Source: Mobula birostris (Eukaryota). Taken from it: DNA of 64,000 bases. This document shows, piece after piece, positions 3,068 through 63,898 of this stretch; position 1 is the first letter of the stretch, and every line of letters starts with the position of its first letter. The notes beneath the pieces were generated by a model, which worked only from the letters and a program-made list of their open reading frames with translations, did not search any database and was not told the origin of the DNA. Both the position numbers and the translations under genes were made by a program. The stretch spans positions 97,966,865 to 98,030,864 of the forward strand of contig NC_092377.1 of NCBI RefSeq assembly GCF_030028105.1, written 5' to 3'.

Positions 3068-4340
3068 AGACAGAGGAGCAGAATTAGATCATACAACCCA
3101 TCGAATCTGCTCCACCATTCCATTATGACTGATTTATTATCCCTGCAACCCTATTTTCCAGCCTTTTCCTCAAAATCTTTGCCATCCTTACAAATCATGA
3201 ACCTTTCAACCTCCGCTTTAAATATACCCAGTGACTTGATCTCCAGAGCCAATTGTGGCAATGAATTCCACAGATGCACCGCCCTCTGACCAAAAAAAAA
3301 TTGCTTCTCATCTCTGTTCTAAAGGGACATTCTTCTATTCTGATGAGATACCCTCAGGTCCTAGATTCCTCCACTATAGGAAACATCCTCTCCACATCCT
3401 CTCTATCTAGGCCTTTCAATATTCAATAGATTTCAATGAGATCCCTTTCATTCTTCTGAACTCAAATGAGTACAGGCCCAACATCATGGAACATACCTCA
3501 TGTTCCCCTTTGATTCTCAGCATCATTCTAATGAACTTCCTCTGGACCCTCTCCAATGGCAGCATATCCTTTCTTAAATAAGGGGCCCAATACTGCTCAC
3601 AATATTCTTTATCACAAACAAGAGAAAATCAGCAGGTGCTGGAAATCTGAGCAACAAACACAAAATGCTGGAGGAACTCAGCAGGCTAGGCAACATCTAG
3701 GAAAAGAATACAGTTGATGTTTTGGGCTGAAATCCTTCATTTTTTTCTGGGCACCAGACCTAACCAGTTTCCTTCACCACCACTCTCCTATCTGGTGTGA
3801 GGAGTGTGGTGTGAAGAGAGTGGTGATGGAAGGAAACTGGTTATGTCTGCTGTCCAGAAAAAAACCCCGAAGGGTTTCAGCCCAAAACGTCGACTGTTTA
3901 CTCTTTTCCTAGATGCTGCCTGGCCTGCTGAGTTCTTCTAGCATTTTGTGTATGTGGCACAATACTCTGAAGTGCAGTCTGAACAATGCCTTATAACAAC
4001 TCAGCATTACATCTGTGCTTTTACGTTCTAGTCCTCTCGAAATGAATGCTAACTTTGCTTTTGCCTTCTTTAACACTGACTCAACCTGCAAGTTGATTTA
4101 AGAATGGGGTGAAGAGAGAAATGGATCAGCTACTATGAAATGGTGGAGCAAGTTTCATGGGCTGAATAACCTAATTCTGCTGCTATGTCTTATGTTCTTA
4201 TGATAAGTTAACCTTTAGGGATTCCTACAAGAGGACTGTCAAGTCCCTTTGTGTGTCTAATTTCTGAATTTTCTCCCTATTTAGAAAATTGTCTACACCT
4301 TTATTCCTTCTACCAATGTGCATGACCATACACTTCCCTG
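3068..4340 (-). mobile_element. CR1 (HER1-like) LINE 3' fragment with two nested insertions
   Basis: Minus-strand ORF2 remnant (KKAKAKLAFISRGLERKS); CR1 tail at 3068. Interrupted by the Penelope palindrome 3609-3957 and a + strand CR1 tail ~4095-4204 flanked by aagtt. Confidence 0.9.
3609..3957. mobile_element. Palindromic Penelope terminal-repeat insertion with an extra internal inverted repeat
   Basis: Arms aaaatgctggaggaactcagcagg and cctgctgagttcttctagcatttt; TSD cacaatattct (3598-3608) / cacaatactct (3958-3968). Confidence 0.85.
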
Positions 4341-4557
4341 GATCTAAAAAATCTTCAGTAATGGCCTGAGGCCCACTTAGCACCATTCTCTGCACAAATG
4401 GCAGGTCATTAGCAATTAAGCAGAATGGTGAGGCTCAAGTTGTAAGTATATTTTGCCTCTTCCCATGTTATCATTGCATTCCTTAGCCTGAATCTGTAGT
4501 TCTGACATGGTGTTTGTCTCCCTCTCCTTTAAGGTGATGTTGTGGGAAGTTCTGGAG

Positions 4558-4768
4558 ATAGAGAGTCATCGAACACTACAACACAGAAGCAGTCCCTATT
4601 GCCCATCTAGTTCTTGCTTGAACTATTAATCTTCCTGGCCCCATTGATCTGCTCGTGGACCGTAGCCCTCCATATCCATCCCATCCATGTACCTATCCAA
4701 ATTTTGCCTAAATGTTGAAATCGAACCCGCATCCATCACTTGCACTGGCAGTTTGTTCCACACACCCA
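4558..4768 (-). mobile_element. CR1 3' tail fragment
   Basis: acaacacagaagcagtccctattgcccatctag...ccatgtacctatccaaatt; second copy at ~46400-46565. Confidence 0.75.
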
Positions 4769-4867
4769 TGGATATAAAAAGTAAATCAGAAAAGTTTTCA
4801 GCAGAATAAATGGTTTTAGAGAGTGGGGGTGTGAATCACAAGCTGCTTGCCTAGTTCTTGACCAGAC

Positions 4868-5322
4868 TCTTCTTCTTCTCAGGCACTACCTTTGGAATCA
4901 AGGATGACTCTTTCCTTTTTAGTTATGAAATAGCTGATGAGGCCTAAGAGGGGACAGAAAACTCTTTTGTGAATGGGGCCAATGATAGTCAAGGGGATAG
5001 CCAGGCACGTAGTTTATGAGATGGTGCACATCTTCTACCAGTGATGCAGGTCTCTGTGCTCTGCTTTTGAACGGACTCGGGGTTCCCAATATCATCCTGA
5101 GTGCTCCATCTCCGCTGTGAATGATCAGTGCCAGGATCCCCACGAGTCGGTGGTCATATTAATTGTCCTGGATCTTTTAATTGTCCAGCAGGTAATTTCC
5201 CATATCAAAGCTTGGAAGAGAGGCCTGTTTCAGGAATGTTGTGAGGGGAAAATGAACAACATGGTCTGTCCAACTTAGCCGGCTGAGTGGAACTGTGGAT
5301 ATTGGCTTGGAGGCGACACTTC
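4868..5322 (-). mobile_element. RTE-clade LINE 3' fragment
   Basis: (ttc)n tail then aggcactacctttggaatcaaggatgac...gctgatgaggcc, typical of the RTE C-terminal/3' end in antisense; same family at ~48625-49095. Confidence 0.65.
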
Positions 5323-5367
5323 CAAGGTTTGTCCATTGTCATCGATGAAGACCTCGACACCATGAGT

Positions 5368-5507
5368 ACTTTTTTATGAGGTTGAGTTGCTAGCTCGATG
5401 CTCAACCCAGCACGGATGGAGAGCGTGCAAGGGAGCTGACCAGATTCGAACTCGGGACCTCTCGCCCCGCAGTCCAGCGCTGATGCCACTACGCCACCAG
5501 CTGGCTG
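5368..5507 (-). mobile_element. Short tRNA-derived SINE nested in the RTE-derived element
   Basis: Minus strand: A box TGGCGTAGTGG, B box GTTCGAATC, ~60-nt body, A-rich end. Confidence 0.8.
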
Positions 5508-5999: not shown

Positions 6000-6034
6000 A
6001 TACACCCTAAAGAAGGGCACCTAAGGGTGACCTT

Positions 6035-6268: not shown

Positions 6269-6662
6269 TTGCAGTAATAATGAAGTTTGCAATAATTTTT
6301 TACTGAAGCAATTGAAAACATAATTTTAATTTGGAGCTTGTTTAAGTAGGTTTTGTTGCAAACTGGGAAAGATATGAGATGGCAAACACAATTCCAACCT
6401 ATAGTGTTCTTTCCTTCTGATGCTTGAATCTTTTATATTGAGAATTGCAACATATCATTACCATCAGCCAATAATAAAACTAAAATAAACACTTATAATA
6501 TCCAAAGCAGCATCACATTCGCTGTCATTAAATAGAATTCTAGCACAGGTATTTCACAAGAGGAAGAAGAATGAAGTTTATTTTGCTTCCCTTCTCTGCT
6601 GGATGCTACATGATGGTACAATGAACACTTCTTCCACCTTTGACCACTTGATGGATTCACAC

Positions 6663-6892
6663 TAAGTGCTGGAGGAACTCAGCAGGCCAGGCAGTATCTG
6701 TGGAAGAGAGTAAACAGTCTATGTTACAGGCCAAGACCCTTCAGCAGGACTTCATTAGCAGGCCTAATAAAGGGTTTTGGCTCGAAATGTCTTCTGTTTA
6801 TTCTTTCCCATAGATGCTGCCTGGTCTGCTGAGTTCCTCCAGCATCTTGCGTGTGTTGCTTTGGATTTCCAGTGTCTGCAGATTTTCTCCTG
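6663..6892. mobile_element. Palindromic Penelope terminal-repeat insertion
   Basis: Two inverted arms of the tgctggaggaactcagcagg repeat, both with decayed hammerhead cores. Confidence 0.85.
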
Positions 6893-7923: not shown

Positions 7924-8020
7924 GTTCTAATGAAGGGTCTTGGCCTGAAGCATCAACTTTTTATTCCCCTACATAGATGCTGCATGACCTGTTGAGTTCC
8001 TCCAGCATTTTGGGTATTGT
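7924..8020 (+). mobile_element. Single-arm Penelope terminal repeat
   Basis: ctaatgaagggtcttggcctgaagcatc...catagatgctgc...gagttcctccagcatttt. Confidence 0.75.
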
Positions 8021-11330: not shown

Positions 11331-11331
<1 letters not shown>

Positions 11332-11420: not shown

Positions 11421-13272
11421 CAGGGCTGGATTAAGCAAGTGCAGGGCCTGTAGCTTATGTTATAAAGGGGCCCTAAATTTAAAAAATGCACCTAAGTATT
11501 AAAACATAAATTATTTACTTGCATAGTAAAGTAATTCAATTTTTTTATTTGCTATACAGCCGGATAATACAACAGATGTCTGACACTTCAGTAATAGTAT
11601 TACTTACATGTAGGTATCAATTTCAAATGCCAAAAGTAACAAATCTACAATTTAAAAGTTACATTTTCTAGATTTAGCATGAGCAAATTTGTTGATGATA
11701 CTTGAAATGTCTATTTCACGCAGAAGTTCATGTTCAATGTTCATTAGAGTGAGATTGTTCAATCTGTTTTGACCCATGGTGCTCCTTAGTTCATTTTTAA
11801 TCCTTTTCAGTTTTGAAAATGAGCGTTCTCCACTGCAGTTCATAACCATGAGTGACAAATAGATGCGCAAGGCATTTTCTCCATTTGGAAAACACGACTC
11901 CAATTCTTCATCAAGACTTTCTTCCAGATCTTCCGGATATGATTTAATAAGATTTGATGACCTCTTTACGATCTCTTCAGGTGTAAGCAACTGTAACTGA
12001 TGAAGGAATCCAAAAACACCATTCACTTTTAGATAAGCTTAATGCCTTTTTTTGACAGGGCAGAAAGCAAGCTGTCAATAATGGCAAGAAATGTTTGGCT
12101 TTTAAACTTCTGAGAAGGCGTTTCAGATTCAACAAGTGGATCAAGAGTGCTGGAACCACTGAAATCATCATATGCATGATTTTGCTTGTGTTTTCTTCAA
12201 GTTTGCTGTTGATAATCTTCATACTTCACACCTTGGCTTTTTGCTCAGTGTCTGAAAAAGTAGACCGCGTAACTTGCATATATCCATGCAAGGATTCATA
12301 GAGTGCACAAGCTGTTTTCAAGTCTTGGCCAGAAGATTGCAAAGAAGCACTGGTCATTTGAAAACGCTGTAATAGTTGATCCCACAATATGACCATTATT
12401 CCTGTTCCCAACTTCATCATGGTTGGAAGTAGTCCACGAGCCTGTTGTCGACACTCTGCCTTCTGATCATCGTTATTTGAAATGTCATCCAAGACTTGTT
12501 TTATGCAGAAAAGCTGTGTAAAAGTGCTTTTGTTGCATCTGCACGAGCTGACCACCTGGTATCTGACATTCTTTTCACAATGGGCAAATGAGCACCACCA
12601 TCAGAAAATGCAGCAGAAAGGAGATCCCACCGATAAGTAGAAGCAGAAAAAAATGTGTACAGGCTTTCTACAAATTGAAAGAAAATTAATGCTTCTTGAC
12701 AACATTCAGCAGCGCATTTTCAACTAAATTTAGTGAATGTGCAAAACGTGGAATGTAATCCGCAAACTCATTCAGCTCTTTAATTCATGCTTGTAAGCCA
12801 CTATACTTGCCACTCATGTTGCTGGCATTGTCATAACTTTGACCACGGTAGTCTTTCATATCAATGTCATTTTCCTTTAAAAAGTCAAGTAAACTTTGAG
12901 TGAGCTGTTCAGCACTATGACCTTCCATATCCAAAAACTTCACAAATCTTTCAACTGATCCAGACGGCAAAACATAGCGCACAAAGTCAGCAGTGCAACT
13001 TCCAGCAGTGTAACAGCGCACGCTGCAGCAGCTTGGGAGCGTGGGAGATAGCGCAACAGTCACCACGACACAGCAAGGAGCCAACACACGCCTGCACACA
13101 CATACCATGCAGCTCTCCTGACACGAAAACAACAGCGTTGCCAGATCATCGTGAGAATACGGTGAGATGCCGATTTCACCAGACTGCAGCTTGCAAGCAT
13201 TTAGTGCAGGGCCGTCGAAAATGCGGGGCCTGTAGCATAAGCTATTTTTACTACTAGGTTAATCCGGCCCTG
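11421..13272 (-). mobile_element. hAT (Tip100/ZMYM1-like) DNA transposon, internally deleted
   Basis: TIRs CAGGGCTGGATTAA / TTAATCCGGCCCTG; perfect 8-bp TSD GTTATGGA (11413-11420, 13273-13280); minus-strand remnants RGQSYDNASNMSGKYSGLQA, DTRWS and CSGERSFSKLKRIKNELRSTM; frameshifted, N-terminus absent. Confidence 0.95.
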
Positions 13273-13888: not shown

Positions 13889-14192
13889 AGCAATCTCTGG
13901 AGCTTTCAGAGAATGTGAAAAATAAAAGATTCAGTGAGTGGCAGTTCTGTGGAGGAAAATGCCTTGTTAATGAAAGAGGTCAGAGGAGAATGGCTAGACT
14001 GGCTCAAGCTGACAGGAAGGCAATATTAATTCAAATACCACACATTACTACAGTGGTGTACAGAAGAGCATCTCTGAACACACAAAACATTGAAACTTGA
14101 AGTGTATGGGCAACAGGAGCAAAGAAACAGACATACCTTCAGTGGCCACTTTATTAGATACCCCCTATACCTAATAATTTGGCCTCTGAGTG
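13889..14192 (+). mobile_element. Truncated copy of the Tc1-derived element
   Basis: SEWQFCGGKCLVNERGQRRMARLAQADRKA; ends in paired TIRs 14136-14192 followed by TA. Confidence 0.8.
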
Positions 14193-14289
14193 TACATATC
14201 AAAATGTGAGCTAAGATATGTATGCTGTTGATACTTCCTTTTTGGAGAGATGCTTGGAAATAAATTAACTGGTTGAAATCTACTATAAA

Positions 14290-15230: not shown

Positions 15231-18188
15231 TGTTATGGCGGGCTGAAACAACTAACGTCTATTGGTCAGCTGATAATCTATCCCAGGGATTATTTAGCTT
15301 CACTGATTGATTGACTTTCACTAATTGATTGTTGTTCCAATCAACATCTTGAATGTTCTTTGGGTAGACCATGCATTGGGATTGGATTTTTGAGATTTTG
15401 TAGTTTCTTGGTTTTTACGGAATAAAGGAGTATTCTGCATTCTAGCTTAGTCCTGTCTCCTGGCATCTGGTCTCATCAGTAGTTATAGGTGAGCAAACAC
15501 AACAAATTGGCGACCATGTGCTGTATTACAACAACATGGCAATGTCAGCAGAGGACTTGAATGGAATTCTACAACAGCAACAAGCTCAATATGAGGCAGC
15601 CCAGCTGAAGTTAGTTGAAACCTTGATCAGCAGGTTGTTAGTGAGCCCAATGACTTCAGTGTCAAGCACTGAACAGAACTCATGTAAGTAATTATTGTGT
15701 GTATTGCTGATTTCTAGTTTGATGCCACTTTGGGAGTTATGTTTGAATCATGGTTTAAATGTTACAAAGATATATTCTGGGTCAAGTTCACCAGTAAAGA
15801 TGGCCCATGGATGATACACACTTTGCTCCAAAAATTGGGTATTGCTGGACATGAGCATTATTTCAACTTCATTCTGGCTAAGAATCTGTGTGATCTCTCT
15901 TTTGATGAAACTGTACAACAAGTAACAAGCATTTTTGAGAATAATCATCTCTCCTCATTGTTCACTAGCCAATGCCTGAAACTCGTTAAACACGACGCTG
16001 ATGACTGTATCCCATATGCCGGTGTCATCAAGCACAAATGTGAAAAGTTCAGGCTGGGTAAACATGAGTGAATCAAATGTCTGATTTTTATTTGTGGACT
16101 TCAGGCACCTGATGATGTAAACATTCATAAATGGCTCCTGTCCAGACTGCAGCAAGACCCTGATATGATTTTACAAGCTGTCAATCAAGAATGTCAGCAT
16201 TTGATCAACCTAAAACATGATTCCAACGTAGTCGAACAGAACCATGTCAGTGTAGTTTCCAGTGGCCCAATCATCAACTCTCAGATGTTTCCAAACGGCC
16301 AAACACAGCTTGTTGGAATTGCGGTGCAGGGCATTACACAAGAAACACTGAATACTAGAAACATATTTGGAGCGAATGCCAATGCTGTGGTCACAAGGAA
16401 GGCTTTTTCCATCTTTCACTGTCTTCTAGGCATTGAAACACAAGGGCAAGAAGTTTCAAAAGCCATCTAAATTGATAAGGAATTTAATGGTTACATCCAA
16501 AGTTGACTTTCCCCCACCTCCAGGAGAAAGCACTTCAACATATTTATCAACAATCAGTTGGTCATGGTACAACTCAGTACAGTGCCAGAAATCACCATTA
16601 TCTTCAAGCACACGTGGTGGGCATTTGAGTCCCCACCAGTCAAATCAACACATCACTCCGGCTGCAGTGCATCTGGTGGATCCCTCCAGCTGACTGGCAA
16701 ACTGCACTGCATGGTGAAGCTGAACACTAACCAAGTCAATGGCATGTGTTACGGAACAGGCCAACCAGATCTGAATGTCCTTGGTATTGACTGAATGGAC
16801 AAGCTTGATCTCTGTATCACCCCTCTGGATGAGGTCTGTACGAAGACATTGGCTGGTCAAATCATGTCAGTCGATTCCACACCACTATCAGTACATGAGA
16901 CCATTCAACAGCAACTGCAATAACTCTATGCAGCAGTGTTTCAAGAAGGTTTAGGTTGCTGCACCAAACTGCAAGCAGAACGTCATCTTCATCCAGTGAC
17001 AAAGCCAGTCTTCTGTCCCAAAAGACCAGTACCATATGCAGCCTTACCAATCGTGGAGCAAGAGTTAGGTTGTCTGCAACAAGCTGGAGTGATCAAAGCT
17101 GTCAACTACTCGCTTTAGGCATCTCCCATAGTCATTATCAAGGAAGCCAATGGTACAGTGTGGTTGTGTGTAGACCTCTCATTTAGTCTCAGTGCGGCTC
17201 TGGAGATGTGCCAGTACCCATTATTGGTACCGGCAGATCCCTTTGCAAAATAGAACGGTGGTCGCTACTTTGCAAAGTTAGACTTGGCTGAAGCCTACCT
17301 CCAGGTGGAAGTGGTGGAAAATCACAGGAGCTTCTCACCATTACAACACATGTTGTTTTCCTTCCTCTGTCTGCTTTTCACGGTAAAGGCAATTCCTTCA
17401 ATATTCCAACAGATTATGGACAGCTTGCTGAATGGTATTGATGGTGTTGCTGCTTACCTTGAAGACATCATTGTGATGGACATGGATCAGACAGAACTAT
17501 GCAAACACCTGGACCACATTTTGAACAAACTGCAAGACTTTGGATTGCAATTTTGGCAGAAAAATATAGCTTCCTGATGTCTTCAATTAAGCATCTGGGA
17601 TTCATCATAGATAAGTATGGTCATCACTCAGATCCCAAAAACGTCACTGCTATCTTAAAGATGCCTCCACCATCAGATATAAGCACTTCATGATTATTTT
17701 TGGGCATGATCAGCATTTCTCCTAGCACTGCACTGGCTGAGAAAGCCACTCATTGCCCTGTTCAACAATGGTCCAAACAATGCCAAGGGGGTTTTGATCA
17801 GGTAAAGAATATGCTGTTGTCCGACCTTCCCTTAACGCATTTCAACTCAGAGTTGCCATTCGCTGTTGCAACGGATGCATCCAACTAGGGGGTGGGAGCT
17901 CTCATATCCTATATCTTCCATGATGGTTCAAAAAAAAACTGTCATACAAGCAGTCAGATCACTGAGCACAGCAGAAAGGAACTATGGACAAGTCAAGAAG
18001 GAAGCTTTGGGAATCATCTTTACTGTGAAGAAATTCCACAAGATGCATTATGGCAGAAGCTTCACTCTCCTTACTGACCACAAACCACTGTTTGGATCTA
18101 AGAAAGCCATCCCAGTGCATACAGTCAACTGTCTACAAAGGTGGACAATGATGTTATTAGCCTACAATTTTGAAATCAAGTACACATC

Positions 18189-19020
18189 TGGTTTAAGATA
18201 GAGCTGCTGAAGACAGGTGACAGCTTACTGGTGGTTGATAAAGCAAGAACTACAACTAAATACTGCATTAATAACACTTTTCTCATGGAAAATTGTGGTA
18301 AATAATCATCACAAACAATAAGCAAGCGAGTGAAGGCGAGGCTGGCTTGAGGGTCGAGGTATGCAATGCAACGGCAGAATGAGGTCGAGGCATGTTCGAG
18401 TAAGAGGGGTCATAGCCAGAGTGCGACATCGTGAAAACAGAATCAGAGTCAGAGGCAGAGTTGGAACAAGTGCGGCAGAGGAATTTCAGAGCCCATCCAC
18501 CTAAATCGGGAGCAAGGTCTGATCCATCGAAGTGCTGGGCCGATTTGGAAAGGTCGGGTATGGGATGGAACATGGCACGAGATCCAGGCCCAGAGCATAT
18601 CGATGCAGCAAGGCCCAGGTCTGAGCACGGTGAACGACCTGATGTTTGGACAATTTAAATGTTGGGTCAGATGGATTGAAAAGGCAGGGTGTTGAGATTG
18701 GAGGCTAGAGTCAGGCCAGTTCTGCTCGTTGCTCCACGACGTTTACTCTGCTGTCCACAGCACTGAGACTGAGGCTGTGGTCCTGCTCCGGCTGCTCTGG
18801 GCTTCGTGTCTATGGACTCAGTCTCGTTCAGAATGCTGTCGCTTGCTTTTATTGTTTGTATGATTTGTGTTTTATTTTCTCTCTGTGCATTGGGTGTTTG
18901 TTGCTCTTTTTTTAATAGGTCCTTTTGGGTTTCTTGGTTTGTGGCTGCCTGTAAGGAGACAAATCTCAAGGTTGTATAATTTATACATACTTTGATAATA
19001 AATGTACTTTGAACTTTGAA
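18189..19020 (+). mobile_element. Non-coding Rex1-tailed element inside Gypsy pol
   Basis: (ctttgaa)n tail; flanked by acatc (18184-18188, 19020-19024); same 3' part at ~46690-46950(-). Confidence 0.7.
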
Positions 19021-19958: not shown

Positions 19959-21194
19959 ATACCTCACTCTCAGCTGTGGACTCCTACCTAATGCTTGAAG
20001 ACAGAATAGTGATTCACGAACACTTCATTCAAAAGTACTCAATCAATTCCATCGTGGTTACCCGGGCATTAATCAATTGAAAGCCCTGGCGAGAAGCTTT
20101 GTGTACTGGCCAGGCATAGACCAAGGTATCATATCAGTATGCAAACAATGTACTCAGCTACCTTTGGCAGCAAAGAATCCAAGTAGAGCCGATCCACACC
20201 CATTCCTCAGGCTACCAGACCTTGGAGTCGAGTACATATTGACTTCGCTGGCCCAATCACGATTCTACCTACTTTGTCCCAGATGACGCCTATTCCAAAT
20301 GGCCAGAAGTATTATTTATGAAGTCAACAATGACAAATGCTACCATTCAACAGCTGCTGCAGATCTTCAGCCGCTTTTGGGATGCCAGAAACCTTTGTTT
20401 CTAACGGTGACACTCAATTCAGTGCACAGCAATTTGCAGCATTCTGCCTGAACAGCAGAATTATTCACATCCACTCACCCCCCATATCGTCCACAGTCCA
20501 ATGGCCATGCAAAGAGGTTTGTGGATACCTTCAAATGAAAAAGGGGAAATCTAAAATCAGGAAGGGAAGGAGCGTCGGCCAAGGCTCTTGACGCATTTCT
20601 GTTGATCTGTCGAATTACACCACATCTGGGCCTCAAGAGGAAGTCACCAGCTGAAGTGCTTTTGACAAGAAAAGCGACCAACATCCAGTCCAGCAGGTGG
20701 TCAGGTGCATAAGGGCAGCCACACAGATCTTGGCTGATGGGTGAAATCATTCAAGCCCGGAGCTGCAGTGTGGGCCAAGTAGTATCACAATGGGCAAGAC
20801 CCCTGGGTCCCAGATCAAACGAATATCAAACAAATGGGGAAAGTACTTTACAAAGTTACTGTAGACAGACATCGCTGGTGTCACCGTATCATCCAGTTGT
20901 GACCATGTGCTCTCGAAGGCAGAACTAGTTTGTCTGACAGATCATCAAACACAGAGCTGGACCTTCATCTGCTCCTGGAAGGGTTTGATTTAGTTGAACA
21001 AACCAACCACCAGCATCAGCACAGCTGCAAGCAACACCACAACACAGTGAGAGCCTGCAACTACTAGAAAGGACTGATTGCAAGTGTAAGCTGGTTGTTC
21101 CAATCCAAATCAACCCTCAGCTCAAATTCTACAGGTAATAATCTTCAACAGGGAGGCATTACAGCAAACTGAAACAACCAATACCTATTGTTCA

Positions 21195-21372
21195 CAACAG
21201 GAATTCTGCAGATGCTGGAAATTCAAGCAACACACATCAAAGTTGCTGGTGAGCGCAGCAGGCCAGGCAGCATCTCTAGGAAGAGGTATAGTCGACGTTT
21301 CAGGCCGAGACCCTTCATTAGTCCTGACGAAGAGTCTCAGCCTGAAACGTCGACTGTACCTCTTCCTAGAAG
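21195..21372. mobile_element. Young palindromic Penelope terminal-repeat insertion in the Gypsy 3' LTR
   Basis: Perfect 13-bp TSD tacctattgttca (21182-21194, 21373-21385); inverted arms meet at ~21320. Confidence 0.9.
21320..21355 (+). ncRNA. Minimal type I hammerhead ribozyme motif (Penelope-associated)
   Basis: AGUC-CUGACGA-AGA[GUCUCAG]CCU-GAAA-CG-UC^GACU: helix I AGUC/GACU, full core, weakened helix II, palindromic ACGU in place of helix III. Confidence 0.7.
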
Positions 21373-21461
21373 TACCTATTGTTCAACTGATAACCAATCC
21401 TAGGCCGAATTGGTCATTGTTCCAATCAAAAGTCTTGAATGTTCCTTGGGTAAGCCATTTA

Positions 21462-23679: not shown

Positions 23680-23866
23680 GACCCTTCAGCAGGGAGGGTC
23701 TCACCTTTTACCTCTACCCCTCATCTTTTTTTCTCCAGTACTGCTGAAGGATTGCAGTCCGAAACATCAACCGTACTCTTTCCACAGATGCTGCCTGGCC
23801 TTCTGAGATCCCCCAGTAGTTTGTGTGTGTTGCTTGGATTTCCAGCATCTGCAGATTTTCTCTTAT
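23680..23866 (+). mobile_element. Penelope terminal repeat with upstream pyrimidine tract
   Basis: ccagtactgctgaaggattgcagtccgaaacatcaac (decayed hammerhead) then gatgctgcctggcc...tttccagcatctgcagattttctc. Confidence 0.8.
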
Positions 23867-24858
23867 TGGTGATTGGATGACCATATCCACTGTCAGATTT
23901 TGTTGCGAAAGCAGAAAACGGGAGAAATAACTTGAAAGTGGAGTAGCTTTTCTGCTAAAGTCAAGTGAAACATCTTGCATTTCTAGAAATTATTTCACTG
24001 GTGAAGTCTGCAATAGTAATGAACATGAAGGGGCTGAAATTGAAAATCATTGTATCCATTGCACTTTGGACAAATAAAGTTAAGCAGTGGAAGTATCCAA
24101 AACCATATTGATTCAGGACCTTATGATCATCTAAAACAAGTATTTGTCTGTAATTGTCTAAATAATATATCTATCAGTTTTGTTTAAGGATATAAATAAG
24201 CAATTGGTTTGCCTTAAACTCAGCAGGATTGGGTTCTGTTGAATATGGAATAACCACATTTCATGTCTCTAACCGGTAAACCATAAATGGGCTGACTGCT
24301 GGCAGCTTTCAGCAAAAAGGCACATTTAGTATGGAGGTACGACCACACAATTCAATCCGCTAATCCATGCCAGCACTTAAACTCCACTCAGAATAGAGAC
24401 TCTACATCAGAGTTGCAGTAAAAGTGGTGGCAATGCAATTCACAGCTCAAATTCATCCTAGAGCTTTAGAGCCTCACAGCAAATTGGTTGATATATCCCT
24501 CACCTGAATTGATAATCTGCTTCTGAGTTTCAGGTGCTTTTTGACAGAGGTTGGTGAGCTATTTTGCCGTAACATTGTGCCAGCCTCTTTGCACACTTGC
24601 AACAAGTTCTGCTCTGGGAACATAGCTGAGTCTGAGAGCAAACCCGTTTCCAGGCTGTTGGCTTTCATCTGCCGGACCAATTTATTCAATCCAAATTCAC
24701 AGCCATTTTTTATATCTCAACTTTGTAATGTGGTGATACAAGGAGAAAATTAAAATGGCACTTCTCAGGAGAAATAAAGAGTGCAAAATTCAATTCCATG
24801 GTGATTATTTAATTGGGCCCTGTAGGTGCTGATTCTCTTCAATTATGTGTGTGAACAC

Positions 24859-30850: not shown

Positions 30851-30921
30851 GCTACTGTGTTCCCCAAATAGCACTTACTTCCAAATTGGATAATCACTGT
30901 GAAGAGACATTCGCTGTCCTT

Positions 30922-31050
30922 ATGAGTCCTGATGTGGGGTTTCAACCCAAAACATCGACAATTCCTTTCCTCCCACAGCAGCTCCTCAACCCACTGAGTT
31001 CTTTCAGCAAATTGTGCTTTGCTCCAGATTCGAGCATCTGCAGTCTCAAA
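30922..31050 (+). mobile_element. Older Penelope terminal repeat (single arm)
   Basis: gtcctgatgtggggtttcaacccaaaacatcgac...ctgagttctttcagca...cagcatctgcag-like end. Confidence 0.7.
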
Positions 31051-42105: not shown

Positions 42106-43674
42106 CCTGGAGTTGCTGGAGCATTACTTATAAAAAAGGATTGCCACATGACAGAAAAATGCCTGCTTTGGAAAGAAAAGACATGTATTTAAATAGTCCT
42201 CTTCATGATGCCAGAATATCCCAAATCATTTTACAGCTAATAAATTAAACATGGAAAGCAGGCAAGCTTGATGCTGACAAAGTGGGCAATAGTGCTAATA
42301 TAGGTGTAGATAATTAAAATTCTCCACTGTATATTCAAGGATTGGGATCAGAAACGAAAGCTTTTCATCCAATTTCCCTTCAATTTACGTTAATCAGTTG
42401 CCCAATTTATAGCCTGATTTTAGTTGGTGTCTCCAGGAAGATTCAACTGCATATATTTTTGCTTTTTAGTTTTCTTGTAGAAGTCTCATCAAATGAATTT
42501 TCACTTAATGAAAGGGGCTGTTGCTTTGCATTTATTTAAACCTTTGTACCATTATTATTCTTAGCATGGAGAATCAGATAAGATTTTTTGTCAGGCGTAG
42601 GTTTTGATCAGACATTGGCTATATAATATTTATTAAGATATTTCATACAGACATTAAACAAAGATTCATAATAGGTTCATGCTTCATAAATGAACAAAAA
42701 ACATTGTATTATATATTATAGCAATATATGAACAATCTTTCAAGTATTTGAAGCCGTAAAGATTTATGTTTATTAGATTCACTGAAAGTCAGCAGAACTA
42801 AATTTTACTTTGATTGCTCTTTGACCAGATTTCTCATTGAATTTCTTTCCATATGTTACCCCTTTTTTGTTATCAAAAATCATTGATGTATTTAATGAAA
42901 ATGACTGCTTTCGTTCTATATTTGGAACTATTAAATCTGAGAAATATTTTTGAAAGTTGCAAGTGACATCTAATCCTTGTAAAAGAGCAAGTATCTTTGG
43001 TTCAGTCCATTGTTACAACACTGTAGCAATTTGAATTCCTAATAAATACTCCAACAGAATGAACAGAACAAGTTATAATTGGAAAACTCTGGAAAAAGTG
43101 ATGCCGGGTTAACTCACTCCAGTTAGTACAAGCGAACAACTGGAGGCCTATGCTGATGTAGGCCTGGCCTAAAACATTAAAGAGGGCGGAGGGATAAGAG
43201 CCTGCCTGGTGCCTCCAGTCATTACAGATATCATTACAAAACGATGAGAATTTTTCTGATGCCCATAACAGAAAAAGGTAAAGAACAACTACCCTGATTT
43301 TCTTTTATGGCTCTGGACATCCTAGCAGATGAGGTGGGGAGACTGAGAGAAGTTACTTAAGCAAGGATACACATGATACACAATGTGCAAGGGCATCTCT
43401 GATGAGGTCAGTGACAATGTAGCCAGGGTACGAATGCAATGTTGGAAAAGTTTAAGGGCCTTACTGATCTGGCTGGAAACAGTGAATAATAAAGTATCCT
43501 CTTTCTGAACAACTACATTACTTGTCACAATCACTGCATCGCCCACATCATTCACCAAACAACAATTTCTATTGATCAGGACTCCTACTTAGAACCACTC
43601 CAGCACTCACATTTTTATCTGAGCTTTCACGCACTCGCAGCCATTCAGTATCACCTCGACAACTGCAACAAAGT

Positions 43675-44315
43675 TAACATGAGAAAGTCTGCAGATGCTG
43701 GGAATCCAGAGCAACACACACAAAATGCTGGAGGAATTCAGCAGGTTCGGCAGCATCTATGAAATAGAGTAAACAGGCTGAGACCCTTCATCAGGACTGG
43801 AAAGGAAGGGGGAAGGGAAGGAGGATAGGTGAAGTCAGGTGGATGGGACAGCTAAAGTGCTGGAGAAGAAGGAATCTGATAGGAGAGGACAGTGGACCAT
43901 AGGACAAACGGAAGGAGGAGGGGACCCAGGGGGAACTGATAGGCAGATGAGAAGAGGTAAATGGTCAGCATGGGGAATAGAAGAAGGGGGAGGGAAAAGA
44001 AATATGTTTTCCGGTGGGAGAAATCGATATTCATGCCATCTTGTGCCAAGGTGTTGCTTCTGCGCTCTGAAGGTGGCTTCATCTTGGCACAAGAGGAGGC
44101 CATGGACCAACAGGTCTGAACAGGAATAGGACTTGGAATTAAAATATTTGGCCACCAGGAAGTTCCACTTTTAGCAGATGGAGCTGAGGTGTTCGACAAA
44201 GCGATCCTCCAATTTACGATGGGTCTCACCAGTGTAGAGGTGGCTGCATCAGGAGTACCAGACACAATAGACGATCACAGCCAATTCACAGATAAAGTGT
44301 TGCCTCACCTGGAAG
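43675..44315 (-). mobile_element. Penelope-like element 3' end: GIY-YIG endonuclease remnant plus terminal repeat
   Basis: Minus strand QVRQHFICE..VIVYCV...LYTGET...DRFVEHL...FNSKSYSCSDLLVHGL...DGMNIDFS, then ccagtcctgatgaagggtctcagcctg and the repeat shared by the palindromes. Confidence 0.9.
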
Positions 44316-45239
44316 GGAGGATGTGAATGGGCAGGGGTCTGAGACAGTTTTCTGGTTGTCCAGAGCGGGGTCCTCTTCGAGGGGTAGGTATGAAGAGGTG
44401 TCTGAGAGTTGCTGCCTGGACTCAGCAAGGTAGAGTTCAGTGTACTACAATACAACACTACCTCCCACTGTGAGGAAGCTAGCTCCATTGCAATACATTT
44501 GAATCCACCCATTATGCAACATTTGATTGCCAAGGTCCTGGCAAACACGTGAACGTCTCAGTGCTGCACTGGAAGCACTGGTTACCTCCACAGTGAAGCT
44601 CAGACTGTTGCCATCCCTACTGCTGATGTAAGTACTTAATTAGACTTTGAAAAACTCCAACAGAGCGCTGATGCATTGTCCAAGAAGGGCAGTGTCCATA
44701 TGGAACGGGAGTTGGAGGTTCTCTGTTGGAATGACAATCTTCTTGATCCCACATAGGCAAGTCCACCAGCGCCCTTAGTGTTGCCTGCCAATCAACTAGC
44801 TCAAAGTGCCACTGTTCTTTCTGAGACGGCGCAGTCCAAAGCGCCACTTCGGTGAACTACCACCTCAAAGAAAGATGTAGGCTCTGAGACACTCAAAGCC
44901 GTCCTTCACTACCATTTGCAGTCTCTTCCACTGCAAAGAGACAGGCTTCTATCAGCCTAGAAGCAGCCATAAAGGAGTACAATGCAGAAGCAATTGAATA
45001 GGCAAAACGATAGACAAGATAACAGAGTACAGATGTCACCAGATAGTCTTTACATGATGTTATTCTTCACTGAAATACTGAACTGATTTAGTTATATATT
45101 CACGATATGAGGAGGAACTGATGTTGAGATGATTGGAAGTAGGGTGAGTGTGATATCAGAACCATCGTGCAGTGAGGCATCTTTGTTAACAATGATTACT
45201 TAAGGGACGTAGCTGTAACTGGCAGGTCAACAGATAAAG

Positions 45240-46095: not shown

Positions 46096-46300
46096 AAATG
46101 CTGGAGGGACTCAGCAAGCAGGCAGCATCTATGGAGAGGAATAAAGGGTCAAGCTTTCAGTCGAAGACCCATCACGAATAGTCTCAGCCTGAAACGTCGA
46201 CTGTTTATTCCTTTCCATAGATGCTGCCTGGCCTGCTGAGTTCCTCCAGCATTCTGTATGTGTTGCTTTGGACTTCCAGCATCTGTAGAATCTCTTGTGT
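46096..46300. mobile_element. Palindromic Penelope terminal-repeat insertion
   Basis: Inverted arms; right arm keeps gtctcagcctgaaacgtcgactg but has lost the CTGANGA box at the junction. Confidence 0.85.
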
Positions 46301-46399
46301 TGATGCAGTTCTACACCTTATCCATGGGAAGCCTCTTGTCATTGGCACTTTACTCCCTCCTGTTTTATTCTCTTGTGATACAAGGGTGTGCAACAGTTT

Positions 46400-48129: not shown

Positions 48130-48255
48130 AGAGACACAAGAGACTGCAGATGTTGGAATCTGGTTCCTCCACCTACCTGCTGGAGGAACTCAGCAGGTCA
48201 GGCAGCAAATATGGAGGTGGAGAACATCTCAGGTTGAGACCCTGCACCGGTCCTG
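48130..48255 (-). mobile_element. Penelope terminal repeat (single arm)
   Basis: acacaagagactgcagatgttggaatc...tgctggaggaactcagcagg...gagaccctgca. Confidence 0.75.
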
Positions 48256-56788: not shown

Positions 56789-58495
56789 AAGGCTGTGTGC
56801 TTAGCCCCCGCTCTATTTGTTTTGTACCTATGACTGTGTGACTAAATACAACTCCAATGCCTTACTTAAGCTTGCTAATGGCACCATTCTTGTTGACTGA
56901 ACCAAAGGAGGTGACGAATCGGCATATACGAGGGGTGATTGATAAGTTGGTGGCCTGAGGTAGAAGGAATCAATTTTAGAAAACCTAGCACATCTATTTT
57001 TCCTACATTTACACACTTAGTCCAACTGTCGTGGAGCATATAGATCCCTTCTTTGTAGAAGTTGGCATCTTAGACCTCCAGAAAGTGGTCCACAGCAGGG
57101 GTGATTGATAATTTTGTGGCCTAAAGTAGAAGGAGATGAGGAGAAACTTCAGACTTTCTGCATTTTCACTCAGAGTTGAAATGTATGTGCATGTAACAAG
57201 AGCTGTATAACACATCTCCTTCTACCTTAGGCCACGAACTTATCAATCACCCCTGCTGTGGACTGCCTGGAGGTCCAAGAAGCTCTCGTTACATGCATGT
57301 GCAGTTCAACTCTTTGAGTGATAATGCAGAAAGTTTGAAGTTAATAACTCATCTCGTTTTACCTTAGGCCATGGACTTATCAATCACCCTTGCTGTGGAC
57401 CACTTCTACAAAGAAGGGATCCGTATGCTCCACGACCGTCAGACTAAGTGTGTACATGTAGGAGGGGACTATGTTGAAAAATAGATGTGCAAGGTTTTCT
57501 AAAATTGACGCCTTCTACCTTAGGCCACGGAGTTATCAATCACCCCGCGTAAGAGAGAGATTGAAGTTCTGGTTGAGTGGTGCTGCAACAACAATCTCGC
57601 ACTCAACATCAGCAAAACCAAAGAGCGGATTATCGACAAAGGAAGAAGCTAAAGGTCTGTGAGTCATTCCTCATTAGGAGATCAGAGGTGGTGAGATTCA
57701 GTAACTTTATATTCCTTGGCTTTATCACATCAGATGATCTGACCTGGGACCTGCACATAAGTGTCATCACAAAGAGCCATGACAGCTTCTTTACTTTATT
57801 CAAAGTTTGTGCAAGTTCAGCATGTTGTCTCAAACTTTGACAAACTTCTATAGATGCACAGTGGAGAGTATCCTGACTGGTCGCATCACAGCCTGGTATG
57901 AGAGCACTAATGCTCAAGAACAGAAAAGTCAACAGAAAGTGGTGAGTACAGCTAACATCACAGGCCAAGCCCTCCCCACAATTGAACACATCTACAAGGA
58001 GCACGACCACAAGAAAGTAGCATCCATCATCATGGTACCCCACCATCCAGTCCATGCTCTCTCTGACTGCAGCCTTTGGGAAGGAAGTTAAGGAGCTTCA
58101 GGTCCCACAGCACTAACCTTAGGAACAGTTATTATCCTTCAGCCATCAGGGTCCTGAACCAGTGTGAATAACTTCACTCACCTTAACTCTGAACTGATTC
58201 CACAACCTACAGACTCACTTTCAAGGACTCTGCAACTCATGTTCTCAGTATTATTTATTTATTTGTTTGTTTGTTAGTTAGTTAGTTAGTTAGTTATTAT
58301 TTTATTTGCACAGCCTGATTCTTTCGCACACTGGTGTTTGCCTGTCTTTTCATATGTGTGTGTTTTTTTAAAAATTAATTTTATTGTATTTCTCTGTTCT
58401 ACTGTGAATGTCTGCAAGAAAATGAAATTCAGGGTGGTATACTGCATTGGTGACATTTACATACTTTGATAATAAATTGACTTTGAAGTTTGAAT
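56789..58495 (+). mobile_element. Rex1/Babar RT-to-3' fragment interrupted by a mariner MITE
   Basis: QGCVLSP, GGDESAY|KREIE, FYRCTVESILTG, (tttgaa)n tail. Confidence 0.88.
56929..57549. mobile_element. 621-bp mariner-type MITE with five TIR copies
   Basis: TA TSD (56927-56928, 57550-57551); TIR cgaggggtgattgataagtt.gtggcct.aggtagaagg. Confidence 0.9.
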
Positions 58496-58604: not shown

Positions 58605-59575
58605 TAAGTATCTGGTTTAATATCACTGACGTATGTCATGAATTTGTTGTTTAGCAGCAGAAGTACGTTGTAAATCATAATAGTTAAAAACTATTGAGGT
58701 AGTGTTCATAGGTTCATTGTCCATTTCGAAATCTGATGGTGGAGGGGAAGAAGCTGTCCCTGAAACATTGGGTGTGTGCTTACAGGTTCCTGTGCCTCCT
58801 CCTTGATGGCAACAATACAATGAGGGCATGAACTGGATGATGGGGCCATAGACTCTACAGGTTTTGAGGAGATTGAGGCATGCAAGGCTTCCCACCCCAA
58901 TTCTAACAACTTGCTACAGGAACACCATCAAGAGTGTTCTGTCTGACTGCATCATTATGTGGTACAAATGGTGTAAGGTGTTGGACCACATGACCCCACA
59001 GAGGATAGTAAAACCTGCCAAGAGGGTCACCGGGGTCTCCCTCCCACTATTTGTGACTTTTACTGAGAGCATTGTATACAAAGTATTATTGAGGATTCCC
59101 TACCAGCCATCCCACAATCTCTTTGACCCACTGCCATCAGGAAGGAGGTACATGAGCGTCAGGATTAGGACTACCAGACTGGGTAGCAGCTTCCTCGCTC
59201 AGGCTGTGAGACTAATGAATGCCCTGCCACCACTGAGGTCTTGTCATAAGGACTGTGAGCTGTTCAGTGTACTGTTTACCTATGCTGCACACTACATGCA
59301 CTTTGAATTATATTTTCTTTACTTATTTGTAGTAATATTTTGTTTTATGTGTGTGATGTATGTTTTGTGGGTGAACTGTGGTTTGGAAGAATGTTGTTTT
59401 GTGTACGGTCAGACAAGAATAAACTTGAACTTGATTAGTAAGGGTGTTATAGGTTATGGGGAGAAGGCAGAAGAATGGAATTGAGAGGGATAGTACATCA
59501 GCCTTGATGGAATACCAAAGCAGACTCGAAAGGTGGAATGACCATATTTTGCTCCATTGTCATGTGGTCTATGAA
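58605..59575. mobile_element. Adjacent Rex1 (-), Rex1 (+) and CR1-tail (+) fragments
   Basis: 58605-58848 antisense tail; 58850-59432 PSHNLFDPLPSGRRY...SFLAQAVRL with (cttgaa)n; 59433-59575 CR1 tail. Confidence 0.8.
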
Positions 59576-60044: not shown

Positions 60045-60925
60045 ATCTAAAGGCAGCGGCTATGAACCTCTGCTTTAAATATACCCAATACATTAGCCTC
60101 TAAAGCCATCTGTGGCAATGAATTCCACAGATTCACCACTCTCTAGTTAAAGGAATTCCTCCTCATCTCTGTTCTAAAGGGACGTCCTTCTATTCTGAGG
60201 CTATTTTGAGATGAGGAGGAACTGCTTTTCCAAGAAGGTGGTGAACCTGTGGAATTCCCTGCCTAATGGAGCAGTGGAGGCTACGTCAGTAAATATATTT
60301 CAGACAAGGTTGGATAGATTTTTGCAAAGTTGGGGAATTAAGGGTTATGTGGAAAAGGCAGGTAGGTGGAGGTGAGTCCGTGGCCAGATCAGCCATGATA
60401 TTGAATGGCAGAGTAGGCTTGTTGGGCCGTATGGCCTACTCCTGCTCCTATTTCTTATGTTCTTATGAGGCTGTGCCTTTTGGTCCTAGACTCCACCACT
60501 ATAGGAAACACCTCCATGTCCTGTCTCTCTAGGTCTTTCAAAATTCAATAGCTTTCATTGAGAACCCCTCTCATTCTCCTAAACTTACGTGAGCCATCAA
60601 ACACTCCTCATACATGAGCCCTTTCATTCCTGGGATAATTCTCGTGAACCTCCTCTGGACCTTCTCCAATGCCAGCAAGCACATCCTTTCTTAGATCTTA
60701 GATAAGAAGCATAAAACTTCTCACTATGTTCCAAGTATGGTCTGACCAATGCCTTATAAAGCCTCAAGATTTAATACTTGCTTTTATGTTCTAGTCATTT
60801 CGAAAGGAATGCTATCATTGCATTTGCCTTCCTTAGTACCAACTCAACCTGCAAGTTAACTTTTAGGGAGTCCTGCATGTCTGAATTCTTAATTTACTCC
60901 CCATTTAGAAAGCAGTCTATGTCAT
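60045..60925 (-). mobile_element. CR1 3' fragment with an opposite-strand CR1 tail inserted (60203-60465)
   Basis: Colinear with ~3190-4300; insert flanked by TSD tgaggct (60196-60202, 60466-60472). Confidence 0.88.
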
Positions 60926-61954
60926 AACATTGTAATAAATCTTACTGTTTGCCGTTTACTTTTGAAATTTATCATGGCTACATGTCTTTTAAAGCAATTG
61001 ATCCCAAATATCATAGATTATTGAAACCTGGAAGGATGGTTACAAAGGAGCTCCTTGCCATCATGGGATTGGCCTTCTAGAGAGTGATTCAAAATATAGC
61101 TGATGCCATGCACCCAGGCTGATGTGAATGAAGCCTGACATTTTGAGCAGCCATCACAGAGGAAACCATAATAGACTGACATAATGTTGAGGCACATTAA
61201 CCTTTCTGTACAATATTGTTATACTTGGGTCTATCGCTGTGTGTTTGGCAAAGTGATTTTGATTCTGCTGATAGAGGCTTACACTCTAGAAAAGCTAAAC
61301 AATGTGTTCAGTAAATGAGCAGCTCTCCAATGTTAAGTGTGTGCTTTCTAGCTTGTGCTTGTGTGATTCACCACCGGAGAATGGAAGAATGCTGCAGATT
61401 CTTTAAGATGAAGCCCATGCCAGTTATCAGGAACAAAAAGAAAGTTACATGATGCGCAGATAGATGACATAGAGTTTGCTGGAAACCATGTGTCATGAGA
61501 TTCTGTGATGTGACTAGAGGGCTCTGACAGCACACTGATGTAGGGTCACCCTTGTGCACCACAAGCCATTCATCCTCACCTCTTCCTTCTCCAGTTCCTG
61601 TCTCACTTCTTCATGCTGCATCCCCACGAGTAACGTGCCGGTTCTCCTCTTTGCTACGTTGTACAGTAAGCAGCAGATGAACTGAGACACTCTGTCTGGG
61701 GAGTACTGGAAGGTGCCCTTTGATAGCAAATCTCACATTGAGTCTAGTGGCATGCTCCATTCTTTATGGCACCTTGCTTCCATCATAATAACTCATAGCT
61801 ACTGTGATGGTGAGCATAGAGATGGCAGAAACTTAGGTAAGAAGGGGCCAAACTCTATCCATCAGGGCAGTGTGGCCTACACGCAAGACCAACAGCTGTG
61901 TCATTTTAGGAATGATAAAGTCTTGCTAGCGCCCAAGATGCCTTGCAGTCTTTC

Positions 61955-62105
61955 TAGAGTCATACAACACAGAAAAAAAACCCTTTGGCCCAACTTGTTT
62001 GATCAAGTTGCACCATTTGTCTGTGTTAGGCTCAAATCCCTCTAAATCTGTCTTATCCATGTACCTGACTAAATGTCTTTTAAATGTTGTAATTGTACCC
62101 AACCT
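61955..62105 (-). mobile_element. CR1 3' tail
   Basis: Antisense TITTFKRHLVRYMD; tagagtcatacaacacagaaa...ccctttggcccaac. Confidence 0.75.
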
Positions 62106-62734
62106 AGCTTGCAAAGACGCTGCTCCTCAGAAAGGTTGACATGGGAGTTCAGAGTCTTGATGAACCTTGGCGCACAAGTTCTTCTGTATTGAGTCCTCCT
62201 GTGCCTCTTCCCCCGAGGACCCCATCCTTGCCTGTATCCTTAAGTACCTGTAGTACAAGTCTCAGGTCATCCAGGAAAATCAGTAAGATCACCACACACA
62301 TACATACCCATTATTCATAACTTTTCTTATAACATGGAAAAAGGCCATTCATCATACCAGGTTGCTGCTGGCTTTCTGAGTAATCCCGTTAATTCCATTT
62401 CCCCACATTTCCCTGTACTCCTCTACCTTGACTCTCCCATTGGCCACTTAAATGACTATTGATTCTACTCAATTAACCAACTATCTTTGGTTAATTGATA
62501 TGTGGAAGGAAATCAGAGCCCCAATTCAATTCAATTCTAGTTTAATTGTCACTCAACCATACATGAATACTCACGAATACAGCCAAATAAGATAACGTTA
62601 CTCCAATGTCAAGATGCGAAGCGTAATACCAACAGTCATACACAGCACAAAGGAAACACAGCACGTACCAGATAGGAAGCACATATAGAATAGCAGTAAA
62701 ATACAACCCCACTATATTATTTATAAAGTATATA

Positions 62735-63560
62735 GGTTATCAAAGGTTCATTTATTCTCAAAGCATGTATCCATATGCAACTCTGAAATTCGTCTTTTCC
62801 AGATAGCCGCAAAATAAATAAAGAACATGGAAGTTGGTCAGAGAGAAACATCAAATCCGCTTCCCCCTATGCAAAAAGAACAGCACCCAATCATCAACCC
62901 AAAACTCCCTTCCTCCTGCATAAAATGAAGCAGGAACATCAATCCCCCCAAAAAACCTCTCTCCACACAAAAAAAAATACTAACAGATAGGTCATCAGCT
63001 CCCCAAACACCCTCCCTTTGTACAATGAAACAGAAAAGTACTGGGCAATAAAAACACAGAATATAAAAACTATAAGTCATAAAAAGTCCACAGACCATAA
63101 ACACAATAGTCCAGTCCATATTTGTAGAACTTCAATGCCATCCTACAATTTCACCAACATTCATCAAAAGAGAGGGGCACCGAACGAGGCGAGAAGCCTA
63201 CCCCCTGCCACAACGAGCCACACAGCAATAGGCCACTCACAGATTTCTTCTCTGACAGCGATTGAAGGGCAAGCAGTTGGCGCTGAACTCTTGCTCAATG
63301 TCTCGATTTTGCTCGATGCTTTAATCTGTGATTAATGGATGTTTTAACTGGCAAAATGGAGTCGAACATCGGCTTGCGCCCTGTCTCGAAGTTTCTTCAC
63401 ATCGAGTTAGGCCAAGCTGTAAACCACAGGCTCTAACAGTCCCAGAAAAACACTTAAGGTGAAAAACAGATGTAAAAGAAGGAAAAAAGACATTTTCTTG
63501 AGTTAGCTGGAAGATGTTGATCAAGGGAGCTTTGTACGCTGATGCCATTTTGACTGGAAG
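62735..63560 (-). mobile_element. Non-coding Rex1-tailed element
   Basis: Tail caaaggttcatttattctcaaagcatgt; 5' end cttccagtcaaaatggcatc. Confidence 0.6.
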
Positions 63561-63683
63561 AGGGATCAGGATAGGTTATGCCAGGGATAGACTAACAGTG
63601 AGAGCATGTAAGCTCCACACAGACAGCACCCATGGTCAGGATTAAAACTGGTCACTGGAGCTTTGAAAGAGTAATACTATTTT

Positions 63684-63898
63684 CAAAATGCTGGAGGAAC
63701 TCAGCAGGCCAGGCAGCATCTATGGAAAAGAGTACAGTCATCGTACAGTCCTGTACTGAGTCTGCCAAAGGGTCTCAGCCCATAACATCGACTGTACTCT
63801 TTTCCATAGATGCTGCCTGGCCTGCTGAGTTCCTCCAGCATTTTGTGTGTGTTGCTTGGATTTCCAGCATCTGCAGATTTTCTCTTGTTTGTGATTTG
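63684..63898. mobile_element. Palindromic Penelope terminal-repeat insertion inside a SINE head
   Basis: Near-perfect inverted arms; TSD aatactattttcaa (63673-63686) / aatactatcttcaa (63899-63912). Confidence 0.9.

Follow-up and report, generated by a model that had tools for sequence, protein, structure and literature searches.

In the passages of three papers that deal with the insertions of endonuclease-positive (EN+) Penelope-like elements (PLEs), these carry a pseudo-long terminal repeat (pLTR), an inverted 5′-truncated copy and a 30-40 bp tail (PMC3846280; PMC8557442; PMC2377424), and part of one of them poses the origin of the inverted copies and tails, and the role of the hammerhead ribozyme, as questions (PMC8557442). 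Hammerhead motifs of metazoan PLEs can come in twos on opposite strands, 100-700 bp from each other, and many stand alone, according to sections of PMC4209133. For the PLE Poseidon, the portions of PMC11167929 consulted here report that in vitro two internal reverse transcription start sites bound the tail, that both target strands are cut and extended, that a dimer is predicted and that ribozyme cleavage is not required. We describe here a 64,000-nt stretch of the Mobula birostris genome (contig NC_092377.1; the whole stretch is called the window below) in which the 3′ end of a PLE recurs both as solo copies and as head-to-head pairs that form palindromes. The boundary at which these copies are truncated is the first bases of helix I of a predicted hammerhead; it is common to palindromes and solo copies, and many ends lie elsewhere. 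Most pairs, moreover, carry the tail on exactly one arm.

Comparison of the window with itself shows a single repeat recurring at the places listed in Table 1. A 472-position profile of the 3′ end of the element was built from natural copies; its numbering puts the CTGATGA box at 333-339, the hammerhead cut site after 360 and the end of the element near 467. Profile matches in the window make up 10 loci, five of them head-to-head pairs, and the matches overall number 318 in 1.364 Mb, with none to a reversed-sequence decoy. These loci are exactly the ten copies and five inverted pairs given in an initial annotation of the window, and its further statements, that the palindromes have unequal arms with a different junction each time and that three of them are flanked by target-site duplications (TSDs) of 11-14 bp, agree with what we find: the arms are unequal and the junctions all different in the five pairs, and TSDs are present at three of the 10 loci (11 bp with one mismatch, 13 bp exact and 14 bp with one mismatch), a search at the remaining seven having found none. 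The same annotation had the arms joining at or just beside the CTGANGA box; nine of the ten inner arm ends of the window pairs do lie within about 10 nt of it, but the peak is 2-5 nt before the box and not inside it. One arm at 63684 stops at or near the cut site, as judged by eye (the automatic call is 374). Pair 1 is hosted by a fragment of a long interspersed nuclear element (LINE) that runs uninterrupted on both sides of the insert, and its centre joins either arm at about the same point.

The motif at the boundary has the minimal type I hammerhead form, with helix I at 328-332:361-365 and with helix II and a palindromic helix III stub also present. Helix I pairs are kept in 36-43 of 43-47 long copies, depending on the pair, and since pair 328:365 is found in 43 of 43 long copies and 327:366 in one of 20, helix I starts at 328. 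The commonest form of the core is CTGA(C/T)GA. The same CUGANGA and GAAA boxes, a 5-bp helix I and ACGU for helix III are described for metazoan PLE minimal type I hammerheads in sections of PMC4209133, whereas the motif of the present PLE is predicted from sequence and has C at core position 6 in 19 of the 112 copies classed as A6 or C6 (including 63745-63775, loci L002-L030). Copies with this C6 variant cluster likewise, 10 of the 19 starting at 326-330; because C6 is a natural hammerhead variant elsewhere and need not be inactive (PMC7151607, in the part that treats it), this clustering does not prove that catalysis is dispensable. Because an Rfam scan of the window returned no hammerhead family, only sub-threshold matches to microRNA (miRNA) hairpins, the putative hammerhead is assigned from its motif, its helix pairing and the published minimal form. 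The bare CTGANGA motif occurs 57 times in the window compared with 46 by chance, a count reached in five of 100 shuffles. Positions 328-365 can form a single predicted hairpin, and the fold of one young copy (z=-1.3) gave a hairpin other than the hammerhead. In 35 of 37 long copies an AG at 329-330 stands behind a pyrimidine tract and resembles a splice acceptor.

Inner arm ends and solo starts cluster in the same way. Positions -5 to -2 before the core hold 23 of 67 arm ends and 14 of 59 solo starts (p=1e-15 and 9e-8 respectively), where uniform truncation simulated with two references places 4.1%; the solo set comprises the copies that start within -50 to +45 of the core. Neither the interior of the box (10/67 arms, 6/59 solo; null 9.6%) nor the cut site (1/67 arms, 2/59 solo; null 6.9%) is enriched, and with the cut site so sparsely occupied we reject ribozyme cleavage as the source of the boundary. 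A raw 15-fold hazard at the peak is overstated by end-calling bias, and the two-reference figures are preferred. The peak is not a mere loss of alignment, since the TSD directly adjoins the start in several solo copies. A ribozyme-defined boundary had been proposed for the palindromes, and this holds in so far as the ends cluster at the edge of the hammerhead, but not as to the cut site, and solo copies cluster equally. It had also been suggested that retro-integration would be supported if mapping of the genomic copies gave a sharp peak at the hammerhead together with variable TSD length; among the copies sampled in 1.3 Mb the ends do peak at the hammerhead boundary and TSD length does vary, but the peak is not specific to palindromes and many ends fall elsewhere.

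The upstream ends were also read of 21 copies that bear the open reading frame (ORF), namely the coding copy L183 described below and the first 20 of 39 other young copies with the frame start. Four of these start downstream of 340, two at 325-340 and 15 continue into the 3′ untranslated region (UTR), 11 of the 15 extending beyond the retrieved stretch. Because 15 of the 17 ORF-bearing copies that reach 340 go on upstream, templates often pass through the motif uncleaved. Starts at 325-340 account for two of these 17 and for 28 of 89 solo copies (p=0.14). A fixed transcription start for all copies is not supported by the 21 ORF-bearing 5′ ends, and inspection by eye of the sequence upstream of 48 short solo copies showed no shared spliced leader. 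Contigs of four sequencing runs cover the repeat, with short-sided joints in which start, strand and level are unreadable, and nothing is drawn from them.

The 3′ ends of arms and solo copies fall into two classes, at about 425-430 and about 460-468, and the difference of about 40 nt between them is the PLE tail. Of 44 pairs found, 39 have both arms above the score filter; exactly one arm carries the tail in 35 of these, neither in three and both in one (binomial p=1.7e-7 against one half), whereas the solo copies (n=108) divide into 56 with and 52 without the tail. Of the 35 one-tail pairs, 17 have a no-tail arm that extends inwards past the tail arm by at least 5 nt, 11 show the opposite and seven are level, these classes being automatic calls of which two of the 11 (6658 and 21193) appear level or reversed by eye. 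In 17 of the 35, both arms carry sequence that is absent from the partner. Divergence within a pair is 0.150 (n=33) as against 0.205 between arms of different pairs (p=1.5e-5), which fits one source for both arms. In some head-to-head pairs the arms are several hundred bases long (L091, L142, L149, L151, L165, L187 and L199); their arm lengths appear coupled, with the no-tail arm often longer, in a small sample in which some overlaps are ambiguous.

TSDs above threshold are 11-15 bp long at the pairs (19 of 39) and 8-17 bp long at the short solo copies (14 of 48); a swapped-flank control gives 0.5% and 1.1% respectively. With the query counted, the best 30 matches of the 63684 palindrome in the genome each have a junction of their own. 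Because the TSDs vary and all 30 junctions differ, each palindrome is a single insertion assembled on site, not a miniature inverted-repeat transposable element (MITE).

The identity of the element is tied to a coding frame by the copy at 43674-44340, which on its upstream side runs into a broken GIY-YIG frame; of the coding frame, the window contains this broken 3′ piece alone. A protein search of the genome gave 150 scored matches, many within long open frames, and 20 of the longest were retrieved for reading. The frame at L183:3946-7059 is free of stops for 1038 codons and matches RVT_1 (E-value 5.9e-5) and GIY-YIG (E-value 0.008), both below the Pfam gathering cut-off. Since this reverse transcriptase and GIY-YIG frame is bounded by the repeat on both ends and by a 14-bp TSD, the repeat is the pLTR end of an EN+ PLE, and the pLTR, partial tandems, inverted copy, tail and variable TSD of such elements are all present. 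The translations contain the CCHH feature, with two cysteines between the VIY and YIG triplets as defined in part of PMC8557442, and read DKG in L193 and L197 and DKR in L183. Ahead of the endonuclease, L183 has a C-x4-C-x2-C linker of the CX2-5CxxC form, which a passage of PMC8557442 gives for Neptune and Nematis and not for Penelope/Poseidon. By this linker motif the element is a putative Neptune/Nematis-type PLE. We take it to be Neptune rather than Nematis. A young subfamily (L183:3866-7177, L186, L200) shows 99% identity among the 40 copies listed and has long open frames; L183 is without most of the 3′ UTR, and L200 consists of three element ends in tandem. Pfam searches with three short broken frames gave nothing useful, and a PDB search with the reverse transcriptase-endonuclease part gave 0 matches.

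The density of the repeat in the window is typical for the genome, because blocks outside it carry 10.3 loci per 64 kb. These were 13 blocks of 100 kb, two adjoining the window and the rest at arbitrary places on large contigs; their 1.3 Mb contain 39 pairs and 210 loci, with 6 to 28 loci in a block. Ten loci per window are therefore ordinary (P(>=10)=0.58), and the five pairs, compared with 1.9 expected, give P=0.046 in a window that was chosen for its pairs. Extrapolation to the 4.0-Gb assembly gives an estimate, not a count, of about 650,000 loci and about 120,000 pairs.

We favour, by a modest balance of the evidence, the reading that these copies are 5′-truncated PLE end-pieces whose starts pile up on helix I, and that the palindromes are two complementary DNAs (cDNAs) joined head to head at insertion. 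Each strand of the cut target would prime one cDNA, and the start sites for priming would be two, separated by about 40 nt, so that the two 3′ end classes would correspond to two reverse transcription start sites, by analogy with anole Poseidon in vitro. Both enzymes would probably read one RNA, the no-tail reverse transcriptase leading and the tail reverse transcriptase displacing it from behind. Synthesis would often stop at the point where the cDNA has completed the mirror hairpin of 328-365 and the pyrimidine tract begins on the RNA, that is, at helix I and with no need for ribozyme cleavage, after which the two cDNA ends might be fused by host end-joining, with short fillers between them. 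Where only one of the two cDNAs was retained, a solo copy would result, and a partial stop on any passage could account for both short and read-through copies with one RNA class. A more specific version is put forward only tentatively. In it PLEs have a paired insertion route peculiar to them: a protein dimer would prime both target strands at two start sites on one RNA, the enzyme behind would peel away the cDNA made by the one ahead, and the hammerhead, instead of cutting, would through its fold halt both cDNAs at helix I. If this is true, the ribozyme fold would set the size of insertions and would have given rise to on the order of 100,000 hairpin loci in the genome.

Several points weigh against the two-cDNA reading. 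The lag of the tail arm behind the no-tail arm that it predicts is a trend only (p=0.095), with 11 of 35 pairs in the opposite sense; central deletions after insertion could mimic arm-private sequence on both arms; and the centre of pair 1 fits a fold-back equally well as one RNA read twice. End calling with a single reference puts 20.6% of uniform truncations at 325-334, and the peak coincides with the splice-acceptor-like pyrimidine tract and AG, so an RNA end may lie there. The in vitro model is Poseidon, while the present PLE bears the linker motif of another clade, and the steps themselves (start sites, one RNA, stop and end-joining) are ones that we infer.

The peak might instead be the true 5′ end of the template RNA, the two cDNAs integrating as before: with an RNA that begins at helix I, either because transcription starts within the pLTR or because a 3′ splice site makes the end, a tail-site-primed reverse transcriptase on the first pLTR would run off its template. 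We regard this as possible but doubtful. It accords with the sharpness of the peak, with the seven of 35 pairs whose arms are level and with the AG at 329-330 behind its pyrimidine tract; in Drosophila virilis Penelope, passages of two papers place the 3′ end of an intron at the 5′ end of helix I (PMC4209133) and the promoter within the pLTR (PMC2377424), and here the start lies at 339 in an ORF-bearing copy with a TSD and at 329 in a further ORF-linked copy. Two RNA classes would be needed, however, to explain the 15 of 17 ORF-bearing copies that continue upstream seamlessly (the contrast with solo copies is not significant, p=0.14), no common leader is seen above the 48 short solo copies, in which by eye the TSD often adjoins the start, and more copies start at 329-330 than at 331. 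We thus place a stop of reverse transcription somewhat ahead of an RNA start as the cause of the peak. The pairs could also arise from one cDNA that folds at the hammerhead stems and is copied back, with the endonuclease trimming the second arm at the no-tail site. A passage of Arkhipova et al. 2013 (PMC3846280) proposes something similar, in which palindromes at inverted junctions prime their own synthesis on an antisense template. The single hairpin that 328-365 can form, the similarity of arms inside a pair, the doubled centre of pair 1 and a few pairs with the predicted ends (e.g. 316/366 and 330/368) are in keeping with it. A copy cannot exceed its template, yet 17 of 35 pairs hold extra sequence on both arms, and on this account two cDNAs are favoured over fold-back; seven more pairs end level, leaving no loop, no-tail ends are as frequent as tail ends in solo copies (52 vs 56), and in 316/366 and 330/368 the tail arm starts late, so that a tail-less cDNA could not have templated it. 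Fold-back is thus improbable as the general route, and of the suggestion that the palindromes are truncated or folded-back cDNA, truncation at the hammerhead edge stands while simple fold-back fails for those 17 pairs, unless later deletions removed their centres.

Two further explanations concern the repeat as a family. The initial annotation had offered an abundant non-autonomous, retrozyme-like family as one possibility, and short hammerhead RNAs of a separate retrozyme- or SINE-like (short interspersed nuclear element-like) kind, arising from short masters or circles, would fit the share of short copies, about half of the solo loci; pair 1 may stem from a re-mobilised, rearranged short copy, and animal retrozymes are reported as pLTR-derived in part of 10.64898/2026.07.22.740005. 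The idea does not survive well: diagnostic variants occur in similar proportions across long, short and paired copies, the units do not start at the cut site, the window contains no tandem array of the unit, and nine closely spaced neighbouring clusters, which by eye are separate insertions or local duplications, have no shared spacer. A separate family is accordingly very unlikely, and the short copies come from several PLE subfamilies and are not a retrozyme as defined. Short palindromic units with flanking direct repeats also recall an ordinary MITE with terminal inverted repeats (TIRs), mobilised by a DNA transposase. In this case the fixed tail makes the ends asymmetric in 35 of 39 pairs, TSDs are 11-15 bp, all 30 junctions are distinct and an element that encodes a reverse transcriptase has the arm as its end, so that we give this explanation next to no credence; variable TSD length and unique centres refute it. 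The claim that the palindromes are Penelope integration products and not TIR-type MITEs is upheld by the variable TSDs, differing junctions and asymmetric arms.

Table 1. Copies of the PLE end in the window, with their TSDs (model, positions of the 472-position profile)
Feature	Position	Strand	Details
Left TSD copy, pair 1	3598..3608	+	11 bp, 1 mismatch vs 3958-3968
Pair 1, arm with tail	3612..3740	-	Model 336-468
Pair 1, centre	3741..3868	.	About 55-nt piece of the element's own reverse transcriptase coding region, duplicated inverted
Pair 1, arm without tail	3869..3958	+	Model 338-428; then right TSD copy 3958-3968
Pair 2, arm without tail	6658..6751	-	Model 329-422
Pair 2, arm with tail	6752..6892	+	Model about 319-329 to 464; TSD not found
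Solo copy without tail	7924..8015	+	Model 330-421
Left TSD copy, pair 3	21182..21194	+	13 bp exact; right copy 21373-21385
Pair 3, arm with tail, young subfamily	21193..21319	-	Model about 335-465
Pair 3, short arm	21320..21370	+	Model 329-381; contains complete minimal hammerhead core (predicted)
Solo copy with tail	23680..23872	+	Model 309-468 at 23711-23872
Old solo copy	30917..31043	+	Model 321-450; 75% identity to profile
Longer 5′-truncated copy	43674..44340	-	Broken GIY-YIG frame end, 3′ UTR, hammerhead (predicted), tail
Pair 4, arm without tail	46096..46174	-	Model 337-416
Pair 4, arm with tail	46181..46301	+	Model 343-463; preceded by 6-nt filler; TSD not found
Degenerate solo copy	48131..48255	-	Model 328-465
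Left TSD copy, pair 5	63673..63686	+	14 bp, 1 mismatch; right copy 63899-63912
Pair 5, arm without tail	63684..63744	-	Model about 361-418
Pair 5, locally templated filler then arm with tail	63745..63894	+	Model about 329-468; core variant C at position 6

Ahead of the solo copy at 23711-23872 there is a weak 14-nt inverted scrap of the core (23680-23693). The window contains several other repeats. An element of about 625 bp at 56927-57551, unrelated to the PLE, has terminal inverted repeats and internally repeated end motifs and is presumably a Tc1/mariner-type MITE; two copies of another repeat, at 192-511 and 13891-14194, have a small terminal hairpin with weak miRNA matches and resemble what we take to be a Tc1-type MITE end. 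Two more palindromes of about 150 bp lie at 46541-46694 and 60114-60263, the second of which is a folded piece of a LINE-like repeat also found at 3208-3343 and 40110-40252. Broken frames at 11652-13258 (-) read like a transposase presumed to be of hAT type, and short broken frames at 16072-18201 (-) like the polymerase region of what we assume to be a long terminal repeat (LTR) retrotransposon. Broken LINE frames with endonuclease and reverse transcriptase motifs are present at 29078-29764, 31928-33113, 33220-38596, 39660-40193 and 58852-59484, and we presume these to be CR1-like and others.

The architecture of an inverted pLTR with a tail is already published. Our search of the literature, in which subscription papers and repeat databases were outside the scope, turned up no publication in which PLE 5′ ends are mapped to helix I or the single tail of each pair is counted. 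Animal non-LTR retrozymes, as described in part of 10.64898/2026.07.22.740005, are likewise short, non-coding, hammerhead-bearing, pLTR-related and dispersed; they are head-to-tail tandems with a hammerhead in each unit, however, whereas the present copies, solo or head to head, have their starts away from the cut site, and no such tandem hammerhead units were found in the window or in the nine neighbouring clusters. For annotation, palindromes of this kind are to be read as PLE ends, not as MITEs or miRNA precursors, the weak Rfam matches being to miRNA hairpins.

In twin priming by L1, both target strands prime cDNA and an inversion results within one TSD, the two cDNAs copying different parts of the RNA. 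The arms described here differ in that both copy the same stretch, which gives an inverted duplication. With the EN+ PLE insertions described in the passages of PMC3846280, PMC8557442 and PMC2377424, the present element has in common the inverted copy, the tail on one arm, 5′ truncation, partial tandems and variable TSDs, and likewise a single frame with reverse transcriptase and C-terminal GIY-YIG that overlaps the tail. Compared with those passages, most inverted units here are two arms of 50-140 nt without coding sequence, and a pile-up of inner ends on helix I is not described there. The sections of PMC11167929 on Poseidon of Anolis carolinensis in vitro report the same two 3′ end classes around a tail just downstream of the hammerhead and inside the frame start, with ends likewise away from the ribozyme cut site; Poseidon is without the CX2-5CxxC linker that is present in this PLE, and those sections neither map 5′ ends nor account for inverted pairs. 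The PLE family of M. birostris provides very many natural reaction products, in which two regularities can be counted: a pair has a single tail, and 5′ ends fall on helix I instead of the cut site. Both bear on the mechanism of PLE insertion and are testable in the existing in vitro system.

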